Below, piece by piece: positions 12,662-20,435 of a stretch of DNA of 20,543 nt. The stretch is taken from the IMG/VR virus record IMGVR_UViG_2734482572_000001; one strand, given 5' to 3'. Position numbers and translations under genes: made by a program. Below the pieces are notes generated by a model that was not told where the DNA came from, did not search any database, and worked only from the letters and a program-made list of their open reading frames with translations. How positions within the stretch are numbered: position 1 is the first letter of the stretch; the number at the start of each line of letters is the position of its first letter. This DNA is from a virus. Its lineage: Duplodnaviria; Heunggongvirae; Uroviricota; Caudoviricetes.

Positions 12662-16342
<3,681 letters not shown>

Positions 16343-16368
<26 letters not shown>

Positions 16369-16888
16369 TCAGCAACCCCGGTATCAGTTCATCCAGCGCG
16401 GCTGCTTTGTTCATGGCTTTGATGATATCCCGTTTCAGGAAATCAATATGCCGGTTATCCAGCTCAGGAAAACGTCGCTGCACCGACAGAGGAATACCGT
16501 CGAGAATACTGGATATTTCCCTTGCTATACGCGACAGCACGAAAGTACAGAATGCGGTTTCCACCACTTCAGCCGATTCTTTGGCATTTTTCAGTTCCTG
16601 CGCCGTCGCCTGAGCACGAGTCAGGCGATGGCGCTCAAATTCAAGTGTTCCTGGGTGAAGATCTGCCTCGCTGGCCAGCCGCAGTTCTTCAACCTCCCGG
16701 CGCAGCTTTTCGTTCTCAATTTCAGCATCCCTTTCGGCATACCATTTTATGACGGCGGCAGAGTCATAAAGCACCTCATTACCCTTGCCACCGCCTCGCA
16801 GAACGGGCATTCCCTGTTCCTGCCAGTTCTGAATGGTACGGATACTCGCACCGAAAATATCAGCCAGCTGCTTTTTGTTGACTTCCAT
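16343..16888 (-). CDS. nu1: Terminase small subunit Nu1
   Basis: 181-aa ORF near-identical to lambda gpNu1 (MEVNKKQLADIFGASIRTIQNWQEQGMPVLRGGGKGNEVLYD...). Confidence 0.96.
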
Positions 16889-17110
16889 TGTTCATTCCAC
16901 GGACAAAAACAGAGAAAGGAAACGACAGAGGCCAAAAAGCCCGTTTTCAGCATCTGTCGTTTCCTTTCTTTTCAGGGGGTGTTTTAAATAAAAACATGAA
17001 GTTACGGCGAAGAAGAACGGAAACGCCTTAAACCGGAAAATTTTCATAAATAGCGAAAACCCGCGCGCCTTCCGCCCCGTAACAGGCCGGATCGCCGGAA
17101 AGGACCCGCA
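16889..17110 (-). other. cos site: cosB (about 16889-17065), cosN (about 17066-17077) and cosQ side (about 17078-17110)
   Basis: Reverse complement of 16990-17065 matches the lambda left end after cosN (CGCGGGTTTTCGCTATTTATGAAAATTTTCCGGTT...); reverse complement of 17078-17116 matches the lambda right end (CATCTTTGCGGGTCCTTTCCGGCGATCCGnnnnGTTACG). The 12-nt cohesive-end position reads GGGCGGAAGGCG versus lambda GGGCGGCGACCT. Boundaries are by alignment from memory. Confidence 0.75.
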
Positions 17111-17147
17111 AAGATGAGAATAATTATCACTTGCATTAATATCCGGC

Positions 17148-17319
17148 TTCTTCCACCATCGCACCGGACGGGCGACTATGAGGGACAAAACCGCGCACCA
17201 TAAACGCGGTAAAAACCCGGTGTGCATCGTTTTTGATTATTCCCGCACACTCGCGCAGAAGGAGTTCCCCGTCGGGCTACGGTCATGGTTAATGCGGGAA
17301 TACAGCGACGATACAGCGC
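17148..17319. repeat. Direct repeat copy A, about 172 bp, roughly 93 percent identical to copy B
   Basis: Hand alignment of 17148-17319 against 18933-19103 gives about 10 mismatches and one 1-nt indel; shared core cggtaaaaacccggtgtgcatcgtttttgattat...gttccccgtcgggctacggtcatggttaatgcgg. Confidence 0.85.
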
Positions 17320-17435
17320 ATGATGTGTCAGGCTTGAATACATTTATCCGTTAAAAGGGATATCAGTTAAGTTATCCCGTGTAGGGTATAAGCCATTATC
17401 AAAGCCACTCAGTAGCGAATGGCTTTTGTAATGGA

Positions 17436-17885
17436 CTATTTAATTAGTGATGCTGCGTATTCGATTAGATATAACTTAGGTGCCAACCAGATTTTTAACC
17501 ATGTCATATTGGTTACTACAGCAATAATAAAACTTACCCACAGAACAAAAACTGCTGCTAATGGTAAGATAAGAAAACTAATCTCACCGTTACTTTCCCA
17601 AATCATAGTCGGTTTGTATTTAGGCTTCCCTTCTTCCCATGACCATCCTTCATTATCGAACTTACCAATTTCAACTTTTTGGTACTGTTTCTTCATAAAC
17701 CAAATAACCAGCGGAATTGTTGAAATTGCTATTAATGTTTTAATCAGGCTATCAACCATATTCCATACCAGCAACTGATGAACAACATCCGGAATCTGTG
17801 CCTGACTGAATGCAATGGCGGAATCAATTCCATCGCTGGCCTTCTTCAATAAATCAACAAGAATTTTATTTGCTTCTTCTTGCAT
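17436..17885 (-). CDS. Hypothetical membrane protein, 149 aa, 2-3 predicted transmembrane helices; second gene of the cargo cassette
   Basis: ATG at 17885 with AGGA 8 nt upstream; hydrophobic stretches TLIAISTIPLVIWFM and ISFLILPLAAVFVLWVSFIIAVV; sampled lines are about 33 percent GC versus about 57 percent in the lambda genes; no family recognised. Confidence 0.6.
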   Translation of the reverse strand: MQEEANKILVDLLKKASDGIDSAIAFSQAQIPDVVHQLLVWNMVDSLIKTLIAISTIPLVIWFMKKQYQKVEIGKFDNEGWSWEEGKPKYKPTMIWESNGEISFLILPLAAVFVLWVSFIIAVVTNMTWLKIWLAPKLYLIEYAASLIK

Positions 17886-18009
17886 GTTTATATCCTGTAA
17901 GTTGTAAGCCTGTTCGAAAAAAAATAAACAACTACGAGAGACAGAAAAAATATCTCAGGCTCTCTTTCTATAAGCTTTTAGTTGAGGATGTTCTGCAAAA
18001 CAAAACTGG

Positions 18010-18870
18010 TTAGTTATGTAACTGCTTCCGGAATACAACAGCCGACGTGCTACAACGTAAAATTCGCTTGATTGTGGCAGTTGAGGAAACAGACTTGCAT
18101 TTCTCAACATCATCAATAATGACCACATCCGGTACAGGAATGACGCGGGTATGCAATGTTTTTGCACTAATAACATCACAGCCATTCAGTGGTCGAATAT
18201 CTGCATCTTCAGGCACTACCAGAAGCACACGTTTTTCCGGTGCAGAAAAGCCAGCAGCAAGAGTGCGTGACAATAAAGTCATTCCGCTGCATGGCTTCAT
18301 ACAAATTTCAGAAATATGATTCTTTTCGTCCAAATGATGCTGGACATCATTTTTATCATCACTCAACAACTCTGCTGTTAATACAATCCCTGCTGTCTCA
18401 GATTTCCAGGAAATGCTGATATCCTGATCATCTGCATCAACATCATATTCCATCGAGTAAGGACTAAAGCTACGTCCAACGAACGCATCATTTACCAGTA
18501 CACGCCCACCCTGTCTGACCTGAAAGTCAACGCGCCCTGAAAGCTGATTTGCTGTTACAAGCAATGCCTTTTTTCTTTTTGTTTTATTGCTCATTGCCAC
18601 CAACTGTTCAGCCATCTCTCTTGTCACACTACCAGAAACTCTTTCTTGAATTTTCACAGAAAATTTTCTGGATGTAGTAGCATCGACATTAAAAAATCTG
18701 GATGTCATCAGGCAGTTATTAACAATTGGCATCAGCTCACTTACGATTGTAAAAAATTCCCGGTAAAGCTCATTTTGCTTTTCAACACACAGCTTTCCAC
18801 AATCGTCCAGCTTACGCTCAAGAGCACTTAACCTTTCCATTATTGAATTAATTTTTTGCAACTCTTTCAT
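18010..18870 (-). CDS. Hypothetical soluble protein, 286 aa; first gene of the cargo cassette
   Basis: ATG at 18870 with AGGAGG 5 nt upstream; starts MKELQKINSIMERLSALERKLDD (helical, coiled-coil-like), two C-x3-C pairs (CGKLC, CMKPC), C-terminal VLLVVPEDADIRPLNG...VVIIDDVEK segment. The ORF-track start at 19131 adds 87 codons through repeat B and is not supported. No family recognised. Confidence 0.65.
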   Translation of the reverse strand: MKELQKINSIMERLSALERKLDDCGKLCVEKQNELYREFFTIVSELMPIVNNCLMTSRFFNVDATTSRKFSVKIQERVSGSVTREMAEQLVAMSNKTKRKKALLVTANQLSGRVDFQVRQGGRVLVNDAFVGRSFSPYSMEYDVDADDQDISISWKSETAGIVLTAELLSDDKNDVQHHLDEKNHISEICMKPCSGMTLLSRTLAAGFSAPEKRVLLVVPEDADIRPLNGCDVISAKTLHTRVIPVPDVVIIDDVEKCKSVSSTATIKRILRCSTSAVVFRKQLHN

Positions 18871-18893
18871 CAAAACCTCCTGACAAAGATACC

Positions 18894-18911
18894 GTGCGAC
18901 CACGGTCGCAC
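18894..18911. promoter_or_regulatory. 18-bp palindrome GTGCGACC-AC-GGTCGCAC, candidate operator 24-41 nt upstream of the 286-aa gene start
   Basis: Perfect 8-bp inverted arms with a 2-nt spacer between repeat B and the cassette RBS; a second copy lies at 19114-19131. Confidence 0.4.
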
Positions 18912-18932
18912 GCTCCTGAATACATGCCCTGT

Positions 18933-19103
18933 TTCTTCCACCCTCGCACAGGACTGGCGAGCATGAGGGACAAACCCGCGAATCATTAGCGCGGTAAAAA
19001 CCCGGTGTGCATCGTTTTTGATTATTTCCGCACACTCGCGCAGAGGAGTTCCCCGTCGGGCTACGGTCATGGTTAATGCGGAAATACGGCGACGATGCAG
19101 CGC
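18933..19103. repeat. Direct repeat copy B, about 171 bp, paired with copy A
   Basis: Same alignment as copy A; lies between the DUF4406-like gene and the cassette. Confidence 0.85.
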
Positions 19104-19113
19104 GGTATTTAAT

Positions 19114-19131
19114 GTGCGACCACGGTCGCAA
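19114..19131. promoter_or_regulatory. Second copy of the palindrome (GTGCGACCACGGTCGCAa), about 20 nt downstream of the DUF4406-like stop codon
   Basis: 7-bp perfect arms tgcgacc/ggtcgca; same motif as 18894-18911, placed on the opposite flank of repeat B. Confidence 0.4.
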
Positions 19132-19150: not shown

Positions 19151-19462
19151 TTATGCTACAGAGGAACAAGCTGGCGGGTAATTCAGCGTAGTGAATACCG
19201 GCATCTCCATCTTGTATGCGTAATGATACTCAGCAGTTGCTCCAGCAGACGCTTTCCAGCCAGGAAGCATCAAAATAGCATCAGCACAACGAAGCATTGC
19301 AAAGCAAATATCCATGTATTCACGTTGTGTCAGACCATTAGGCAAAGTGGCTGGATTCAAGACAGAGTGACCATGTCGTGACAAACGATCTGCCTCTTTA
19401 TTAAAGGCGTCACGATTAAAGTTCTCATATCCCGTCATTGGCCCGGCAATATAAATTTTCAT
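19151..19462 (-). CDS. Small DUF4406-like protein (nucleoside 2-deoxyribosyltransferase-like fold), 103 aa
   Basis: ATG at 19462, TAA at 19151-19153; N-terminal MKIYIAGPMTG followed by LNPATL and a C-terminal acidic/aromatic segment, a pattern I recall for DUF4406 proteins; assignment is from recall, not a profile search. Confidence 0.55.
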   Translation of the reverse strand: MKIYIAGPMTGYENFNRDAFNKEADRLSRHGHSVLNPATLPNGLTQREYMDICFAMLRCADAILMLPGWKASAGATAEYHYAYKMEMPVFTTLNYPPACSSVA

Positions 19463-19503: not shown

Positions 19504-19941
19504 TTAATTCAGGCATTGCGTCTTGATGTATTCCTGCAAGTAGTTAACCTGCGCAGTTATCCTGTCGATCCCACTTCGGAGACGGTAATAATTGAGTTCA
19601 GCATCTGCTGTAAGTCTTGGGCTTTCTCCATTGCCCATGCCGCTGGCTCCGGTCGTTGACTTTGCACAGGTGGCGGCGACTTGCAGGCGCTTACGCCCAG
19701 CAGAAACATCAGCACGGAGGCTTTCGATAGTCGCGTTAGCATCAGCAAGCTCCTTTGTATATCTGGCATCGAGTTCCGCTACGTCACGTTGACGCTTCTG
19801 CATATCAGCGATTGTGGATGTGGCTTTATCGCGCTGCTCTTTGTAGGCGATGGCGTTATCACGGTAATGATTAACAGCCCACGACAGGCAGACGATGATG
19901 CAAATAACCAGAGCGGAGATAATCGCGGTTACCCTGCTCAT
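19504..19941 (-). CDS. Rz: Spanin inner-membrane subunit Rz (i-spanin)
   Basis: ATG at 19941 overlaps the R stop (ATGA); N-terminal TM helix [23 protein letters not shown] then coiled-coil periplasmic domain; resembles phage 21/DLP12 Rz. The ORF-track start at 19953 is a GTG four codons upstream. Confidence 0.88.
19557..19742 (-). CDS. Rz1: Spanin outer-membrane lipoprotein subunit Rz1 (o-spanin), embedded in the +1 frame of Rz
   Basis: [20 protein letters not shown] lipoprotein signal with lipobox VSAC followed by proline-rich [13 protein letters not shown]; entirely inside Rz. Start could instead be the upstream ATG at 19769. Confidence 0.7.
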
Positions 19942-20435
19942 TGTTGACCCCACAAACAGACTTCACGCTCAATCTCACGACGAGTCATCAGGCCTTTCCA
20001 TTGCTTACCGCCAGCAGATATCCAGCGACGTAGCTGATCACATGCGCCTTTGATATCGCCCTGGTTTATTTTGCGAAGAAGCGTCGATGTTCTGAAATTA
20101 CCAGCACCCACGTTGTAAACGAACGAGTAAAGAGCGCCGCGCGTTGTTTCCGGTATATCGACTTTGATGTACGGGTTAATTTGTCTGGCGACAGTGGCAA
20201 GGTCTTTATTCAGGAGAGCTTTGCATTCTGCTTCGGTATACGTTTTACCAGGCATGATGTCTTTTCCGGTGTGTCCGTGACATACAGTCCATACACCAAT
20301 GATATCTTTGTATAGTATGTAGCTGACACCTTCCAGACCATCGTTACCACCTGGGCCAGTGATTAACACAGATGCTATAGCAACAGCCCCGCCACCAATA
20401 GCAACTGCAACAGCCTTGCGTAATGATGGCGACAT
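19938..20435 (-). CDS. R: SAR endolysin (lysozyme R of the phage 21 / DLP12 RrrD type), 165 aa
   Basis: N-terminal signal-anchor-release segment [23 protein letters not shown] followed by a lysozyme domain; near-identical from recall to R21/RrrD; GAGAGGTG RBS upstream of ATG 20435. Confidence 0.92.

Follow-up and report, generated by a model that had tools for sequence, protein, structure and literature searches.

The 20,543 nt of viral DNA analysed here (Caudoviricetes; IMG/VR virus record IMGVR_UViG_2734482572_000001; 'the window' means this whole stretch) carry a two-gene cargo between the lysis genes and cos, framed by two direct repeats of about 180 nt. We judge, with a probability of about 0.8, that a single conserved non-coding module, which serves as a recombination landing pad, is present here in two diverged versions, types A and B, and brackets an accessory gene insert, or moron. 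We call the repeat unit E, its cos-proximal occurrence copy A and its lysis-proximal occurrence copy B. The RNA sense of both is the minus strand, the strand of the late transcript, and in that sense E looks like a structured RNA comprising a long hairpin, a variable hairpin and an H-type pseudoknot, each apparently kept by compensatory substitutions. The features concerned are these.

17136–17323, minus strand: E copy A (cos-proximal), from self-blast, a full-length match to covariance model R1 (219.7 bits) and alignment with 65 homologues
17436–17885, minus strand: cargo gene 2, 149 aa, phrog_3054, two long helices predicted
18010–18870, minus strand: cargo gene 1, 286 aa, phrog_2571, an ORFan of E. 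coli phages only
18921–19107, minus strand: E copy B (lysis-proximal), from self-blast and a full-length R1 match (209.9 bits)

When the window is compared with itself by blastn, a single non-trivial direct repeat is found, 17148–17319 against 18933–19103, aligned over 172 positions with 91.28 % identity, 14 mismatches and one gap (E = 3.8e-64). The first-pass annotation had given exactly these coordinates; its estimate of about 93 % identity, with some ten substitutions and one indel, was right as to the reality of the repeat and the single gap, but slightly high, the measured identity being 91.3 % and the mismatches 14. A repeat-finding scan breaks the pair at the indel into two parts, D1 and D2. 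Judged by its homologues, the unit is wider, extending over 17141–17320 and 18926–19104, and across this span copies A and B differ at 19 places. Both cargo genes are bracketed, with copy A 113 nt past the stop of the 149 aa gene, the end of copy B 55 nt from the start of the 286 aa gene, and 34 nt between cosQ and the start of copy A. The earlier description of the repeats as lying just outside two genes of foreign composition is therefore borne out in both respects, the G+C content of the cargo being 36–43 % and that of its surroundings 50–60 %.

E is far more widespread than the cargo. It was matched at 434 places in 432 phage records, including lambda-like phages, 434, mEp460, Ayreon, many Stx1 and Stx2 phages and Salmonella S107, and 4914 of 5426 complete E. 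coli genomes (91 %) have it, at 13,039 places in all and a median of two places per genome. Among about 150 loci examined it is nearly always in single copy, and in the matches listed for at least 120 viral stretches just one stretch has two pattern matches. E points the same way as Rz in every one of 126 cases, and its place is between Rz and cos in every one of 96. More than 20 gene architectures are found around it, its neighbours being bor, ybcV-like, YlcI, TonB-like, DUF4406 or HNH genes, a 153 nt open reading frame (ORF), or nothing. E is conserved regardless of cargo, over 99 % of its occurrences being without it. E is the fixed anchor of a moron hot spot that extends from the lysis cassette to the packaging site, and it is carried once, in one orientation, by lambdoid phages of Escherichia, Shigella and Salmonella, nearly all lambda-like prophages of E. 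coli having it.

The covariance model built here gives full-length matches in HK629, in the DLP12 cryptic prophage of K-12, in E. albertii and in Intestinirhabdus. In lambda-like HK629 (locus L008, 1654–1827) E fills the bor–lambdap78 intergenic region, its place in lambda being at about 46.87–47.04 kb, and in DLP12 of K-12 MG1655 (579,006–579,180; L136, 2507–2681) it fills that between borD and ybcV; the records of MG1655 DLP12 and HK629 annotate no RNA feature at E. Beyond Escherichia and Intestinirhabdus the pattern scan returned only short or chance contigs, and two of the pattern-scan matches (L147 and L148) failed the covariance model. Some metagenome-derived copies in IMG/VR (L046, L056 and L087) have runs of 8–10 C where others have mixed sequence, and these runs are probably artefacts of assembly or sequencing.

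The putative RNA fold of E has three domains, read on the minus strand.

Copy A 17224–17314, copy B 19009–19098, minus strand: 5' domain, a long irregular hairpin (RNAalifold on the minus strand; pair counts)
Copy A 17190–17210, copy B 18975–18995, minus strand: variable middle hairpin (ACCGCG/CGCGGU) followed by UUUUG (alignments)
Copy A 17142–17176, copy B 18927–18961, minus strand: 3' domain, an H-type pseudoknot, both stems of which covary

The long hairpin has an outer and an inner stem, of 7 and 11 bp respectively, with an asymmetric internal loop between them, and small apical stems, GYAG/CUGC and CC/GG; its asymmetric internal loops are conserved, its helices 1–4 are 97–100 % paired, and five pairs of the inner stem have changed on both sides. 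In the pseudoknot, stem S1 joins 17172–17176 with 17158–17162 and stem S2 joins 17163–17168 with 17142–17147; three and four of their pairs respectively have changed on both sides, and they are 91.7 % and 96.6 % paired. The middle hairpin is only 50–77 % paired in the fixed alignment, owing to indels, and its sequence has been swapped wholesale in other types of E.

We aligned 65 distinct copies of E, and took the covariation statistics from a non-redundant minus-strand alignment of 29 sequences, from which L056 was left out and in which L046 was retained. Among the 65 copies, one stem occurs as CCGG/CCGG, CCUG/CAGG and UCGA/UCGA, the stem interleaved with it as UCGC/GCGA, CCGC/GCGG and CCAG/CUGG, and the AUUCCCGCA/UGCGGGAAU inner stem shows four kinds of double change. 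In the 29-sequence alignment 93.3 % of cells are paired; 16 pairs have changed on both sides, compared with 3–10 when the partners are slid, the corresponding cells number 50 compared with 6–23 in the slid controls, and the covariation score reaches 0.183, controls giving 0.081 at the most. None of 500 shuffles equalled any of the observed measures. As to strand, 135 G-U cells fit the late strand and 18 the opposite one, and the paired fraction falls from the same 93.3 % to 83.0 % on the opposite strand; the G-U asymmetry is the reason for taking the late strand as that of the RNA, and on its account the plus strand (the sense of bor), which had been considered first, was rejected. The two copies in the window follow the same pattern, with compensatory changes in both pseudoknot stems: six of their 19 differences make up three paired changes that keep the pair, one turns a G-U into a G-C pair, four fall in the loop of the variable hairpin, and only three weaken a terminal pair. 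An RNA element had been offered in the first-pass annotation as an alternative, and a covariation-supported structure on the late-transcript strand makes it a likely one.

Simpler accounts of the conservation of E were considered and rejected. It is not a coding repeat, for the ORFs of 55–58 aa over copy A are lost in copy B through a stop codon and an indel frame shift, and indels of 1 nt and 10 nt in homologues also break them. Nor is it an intrinsic terminator: a terminator-like match lies in the middle hairpin of copy A (17208–17194), but copies of the 434 and Stx types have this hairpin replaced and have no U tract. A search of Rfam 15 at permissive thresholds with the surrounding 3.7 kb and with E alone gave chance microRNA and small nucleolar RNA matches of 10–24 bits, against gathering thresholds of 45–95, and no complementarity was found between the loops of E and the rest of the window. 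We found no description of E in the searchable literature, and no published transcript data for it.

The origin of the E–cargo–E block is best approached through its flanks. On the minus strand, which is the late-gene strand of the window, the order is lysozyme, Rz, a DUF4406 gene, copy B, the 286 aa gene, the 149 aa gene, copy A, cosQ, Nu1 and the terminase large subunit, and the elements adjoining the repeats are as follows.

17323–17435: spacer sp1, with an 8 bp hairpin (17390–17397 with 17418–17425)
18894–18911: palindrome GTGCGACCACGGTCGCAC, between copy B and cargo gene 1 (read from the sequence; terminator scan)
19114–19130: second copy of the palindrome, between the DUF4406 gene and copy B
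19151–19462, minus strand: DUF4406 gene, nucleoside 2-deoxyribosyltransferase-like (Pfam PF14359, E = 3.7e-34)

In many phages without cargo, the spacer sp1 is what normally adjoins E on the Rz side, the arrangement E–sp1–Rz being seen in more than 40 loci, and it carries a terminator annotation in phage Ayreon. Both window copies of E represent sequence types that other phages share, and copy B has counterparts that are 100 % identical in L028, L040 and L104. Since copy A with sp1 corresponds to the E–sp1–Rz unit and copy B with the palindrome and DUF4406 gene to another natural unit, A and B are of different ancestry and were joined by recombination rather than by recent duplication.

We propose the following course of events. 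E is conserved for its own sake and would act in cis within the Q-dependent late mRNA, for example in its processing, its stability or read-through. Because it is common to otherwise different phages and adjoins cos, where packaging breaks stimulate recombination, it would also provide a landing pad for homologous recombination by Red or RecA. Accessory genes sit on either side of it, and the joining of two phages with accessory DNA on opposite sides of E would leave the low-G+C two-gene cargo between two copies; this E–cargo–E block would then spread across backbones by crossovers within or beyond E, and a crossover from copy to copy would remove the 1.8 kb cassette, a loss of 1785 bp, with a single chimeric E remaining. 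What has been observed is the repeat with its family, fixed position and polarity, the covariation, the distribution of the cargo, the empty sites and the chimeras; which enzymes recombine, in what order the first block came about, and what the E RNA and the cargo do are inferred. For lambda, recombination with DLP12, Qin and Rac has been measured, including Red-dependent recombination between sequences as diverged as 88 % and stimulation beside cos (De Paepe et al., 2014, PMC3945230), and the 8.7 % divergence of A and B falls within that experimental range of Red-dependent exchange.

The distribution of the cargo is consistent with such spread. Some part of it occurs in 66 of 5426 E. coli genomes (1.2 %) and the complete cargo in 28, and all 28 complete copies lie between two copies of E. 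The block of E, sp1, gene 2, gene 1, palindrome and E is found in at least four phage backbones, the first being the window's own. In the second (L134) a YlcI gene and a different small terminase lie on the cos side and sp1 with a 153 nt ORF on the Rz side, in the third (L135) the block stands beside yet another terminase, and the fourth has an HNH gene. Stages of loss can also be recognized: in YDC107_1 and L017 gene 2 is gone and part of gene 1 is missing, with both copies of E kept; L002 has a decayed cargo with both copies still present; and L133 lacks gene 2, copy A and the greater part of gene 1.

The first-pass annotation had predicted cassette-free relatives with a single repeat copy and had suggested a search for such empty sites; they exist, at least five genomes having the order cos–E–palindrome–DUF4406–Rz with one E and the same flanks, and they include two with chimeric A/B copies. 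In the most informative of them, the sister phage-plasmid pZ1323HEC0355-3 (L152), whose Nu1 and DUF4406 genes are respectively 99.1 % and 99.7 % identical to those of the window, the single E has all A-type diagnostic bases to the left and all B-type bases to the right, with a crossover within the 37 bp identical stretch 17205–17241, the longest that A and B share. The single E of a chromosomal prophage (L132) is a different chimera, with the switch at 17146–17157 and a G-A mismatch in a pseudoknot stem, one pair being broken. Further hybrids are the right-hand copy of L134, in which the crossover lies in a third interval, and L007/L012. The varied positions of these crossovers argue for general homologous recombination and against a site-specific mechanism, and the broken pair in L132, together with the coherence of types A and B elsewhere, favours deletion as the direction of change. 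Two earlier suggestions thus gain support, namely exchange by recombination at a repeated phage sequence, from the conserved E, the recurrence of one block in different backbones and the chimeras, and deletion of the cassette by recombination between copies, from the chimeric single-E relatives.

Several points weigh against this reading. The clean chimera of L152 could in principle be ancestral, as a circle with a B-left/A-right E would by integrating give the same picture, and only L132, through its broken pair, points to a derived state; for the origin of the first E–cargo–E block we have an inferred order of events only. As regards the fold, the RNA is a predicted one, single-sequence folding energies are no better than those of shuffles (z of about −1 on either strand), the outer stem is invariant and hence has no covariation support of its own, and a few Salmonella copies have wobble pairs that fit the plus strand.

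A further reading gives E the leading part. It holds that E represents a class of structured RNA, some 180 nt in length and hitherto undescribed, in the late operons of most lambdoid phages, the lambda type and DLP12 included, with a specific function in cis or in trans (in late expression, lysis, packaging or phage–host conflict), its use as a recombination handle being secondary. We put this forward tentatively, at slightly less than an even chance.

A different emphasis would make both copies necessary, each providing a regulatory RNA for its adjoining gene block, for instance to control cargo expression, with the bracket itself under selection. That every helix is kept in both copies through compensatory changes, that both are full-length and high-scoring members of the family, and that all 28 complete cargo copies have two E would be expected on this account; against it, a gene 2 homologue stands as a lone moron by a single E in L150 and without any E in the pL slot of L151, the decayed cargo in L002 and L017 retains both copies, and more than 99 % of E occurrences are free of cargo, so that we consider it improbable.

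Slightly less probable still is local tandem duplication of E in one lineage, by slippage or unequal exchange, with insertion of the cargo afterwards. The repeats are indeed direct, in the same orientation and only 1.8 kb apart, and in L134 the duplicated unit is longer, with E and sp1 on both sides. The copies are, however, 8.7 % apart, as far from each other as from those of unrelated phages (92–93 % identity to Ayreon); they are distinct types with co-adapted stems, CCGG/CCGG in one and CCUG/CAGG in the other, and likewise UUCCC/GGGAA and UUUCC/GGAAA; and their outer flanks match different single-copy contexts, the A side that of cos–E–sp1 phages and the B side that of E–palindrome–DUF4406 phages. 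Of the 'duplicated regulatory/RNA element' that the earlier description had allowed for, the RNA element is thus likely, but this divergence and the separate types do not agree with a recent duplication in situ.

Least probable, and very unlikely in our view, is a mobile cassette, in which the two genes would be carried by a transposable or site-specific element and the copies of E would be its ends or att-like sites. The foreign composition of the cargo, the same two flanking sequences in every backbone and the 17–18 bp palindrome framing copy B in direct repeat would suit this account. It is opposed by the lack of any gene for an integrase, transposase or recombinase within the cassette or beside it (among ORFs or in the record annotation), by ends of about 180 nt that repeat directly and have no terminal inverted repeats, by the presence of E in 91 % of E. 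coli genomes and of the cargo in 1.2 %, and by crossovers in three intervals (17146–17157 in L132, 17205–17241 in L152, and that of the right-hand copy in L134) with no fixed site. Particular elements of this kind were rejected on the same grounds: for a transposon, insertion sequence or miniature inverted-repeat transposable element, no inverted repeat pairs the ends and no transposase is present among the ORFs or in the record annotation; for an integron attC or a phage att site with its integrase, no recombinase is nearby and the crossover point is not fixed.

With E taken as a conserved module at which recombination occurs, the locus can be compared with known systems. Lambdoid phages exchange modules by relaxed homologous recombination (Juhala et al., 2000, as cited in PMC4104026; De Paepe et al., 2014, PMC3945230). 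The linkers at lambdoid mosaic boundaries and the moron slots resemble E in being short conserved sequences at one map position in otherwise different phages, and resemble the present locus in having accessory genes of foreign composition alongside, hybrid junctions inside the conserved stretch and a position near cos. Unlike them, E occurs twice in one genome and brackets cargo, and whereas such a linker is a gene end or a short sequence, E is a module of about 180 nt with a covariation-supported RNA fold. The repeat-flanked moron is a documented new example, of an ordinary kind, of known phage mosaicism, and the locus is valuable as a natural instance of modular exchange, in which the cargo can be seen in several backbones, decayed and deleted, and the crossovers can be read. 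E itself, as a widespread and polar element whose predicted fold includes a pseudoknot, appears to be undescribed and is the more interesting part; if it is functional, it would be an overlooked regulatory feature in the best-studied of phage late operons, and one testable in lambda.

The bor upstream regions of lambda and DLP12 (bor–lambdap78 and borD–ybcV) are homologous to E, matching the full-length model. The HK629 record has a predicted sigma-70 promoter for bor inside E (TGGACA-15-TACAAT, on the window plus strand). In the window, by contrast, there is no bor, the promoter is degenerate in both copies (CGGTCA...TACAGC and TACGGC), and a consensus scan finds no promoter there; E is also conserved in phages without bor, and a bor promoter therefore cannot explain its conservation. 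Cis-acting structured RNAs of phages and bacterial operons include the RNase III processing hairpins of T7 and lambda, put of HK022 and the EAR antitermination element of Bacillus. E is like these in its fixed polarity within a long polycistronic transcript and in its irregular hairpin of about 22 bp with a pseudoknot, a resemblance of kind only, and unlike them in resembling no Rfam family, whether in sequence or by model. A further comparison is with AgvB, AsxR, Esr41, STnc100 and the Pas RNAs of pathogenic E. coli, Hfq-dependent prophage small RNAs of 50–100 nt encoded downstream of PR' and Q, near holin or stx genes (PMC4104026; bioRxiv 10.64898/2026.05.13.724894). Like E they are non-coding, occupy conserved lambdoid positions and lie beside moron slots, but E is downstream of Rz and about 180 nt long, and the Rfam search gave no family matching it, five of these small RNAs being cited with Rfam accessions.

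As to the cargo itself, gene 1 has no recognized domain or solved relative in sequence searches of Pfam, PADLOC, NCBIfam and PDB, and searches of sets of 5.8 billion and 1.8 billion proteins returned only close E. coli relatives and fragments. Its AlphaFold2 model is of low confidence (a pLDDT, or predicted local distance difference test score, of 62), and the best PDB fold matches, which are P-loop/RecA-like, reach a template modelling score of at most 0.28, weak matches on which we do not rely. Gene 2, whose AlphaFold2 model is likewise of low confidence, probably encodes a small membrane protein. Homologues of gene 2 occur without gene 1 beside the single E of L150 and in the pL-operon slot of L151, and from its presence in other moron slots without gene 1 we conclude that gene 2 is an independent module. 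The lone homologues (L151, 3489–3938; L150, 3501–3950; L123, 9109–9557) have 81–89 % DNA identity to 17436–17885, and one of them is located in a lambda-like early-left operon, with cIII and N on either side. Defence models from PADLOC, Pfam and NCBIfam gave no significant match to the cargo, the best being DrmMII (E = 0.023) and Pan2 (E = 0.03). Its moron slot and composition suggest that the cargo is an accessory module, possibly one of exclusion or defence; an ORFan and a predicted small membrane protein in a moron slot of an N15-like phage-plasmid would form a candidate superinfection-exclusion or defence module.

The window is 100 % identical to part of pCAVP367-48 (NZ_CP145143.1, locus L153), a linear E. 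coli plasmid of 47.6 kb. Since this encodes a protelomerase, the CyRepA1 replication protein, SopA/ParB and a full lambda-like virion module, the source of the window is an N15-like phage-plasmid and not an integrated prophage; it also has a RelE/ParE toxin pair. Several relatives, both cargo-bearing and cargo-free, are likewise plasmid records of 46–50 kb, and phage PhiR46_1 is 98.5 % identical to the window. The remaining features of the late region are the following.

16343–16888, minus strand: Nu1, with the terminase large subunit next
17066–17107: cos, cut near 17066–17078 (placed by aligning phage 434, whose end and cosQ are annotated)
19504–19953, minus strand: Rz
19938–20435, minus strand: lysozyme

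The right end of the virion DNA maps to 17078, and cosQ (AGGACCC) is at 17101–17107. The DUF4406 gene, the lysis-side neighbour of copy B, is kept in the cassette-free relatives L132 and L152; it is a further accessory gene of the late operon, directly after Rz, and within this data set it is linked in every case to a B-type repeat. The palindrome at 18894–18911 is terminator-like on the minus strand and recurs in related loci. In its perfect form of 17–18 bp, GTGCGACCACGGTCGCA(C), it stands on both sides of copy B as a short direct repeat; it is also found at other intergenic sites of related phage-plasmids (four copies each in L040 and L104) and adjoins single copies of E in L024, L099 and L132. 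It possibly serves as a terminator confined to the lineage, or marks a second boundary between modules. Between cos and Nu1 lies an inverted repeat (16913–16969) with arms of 26 nt that are 88 % complementary, which by position and sequence is probably the counterpart of the R sites of lambda cosB, to which Nu1 binds and which face in opposite directions.

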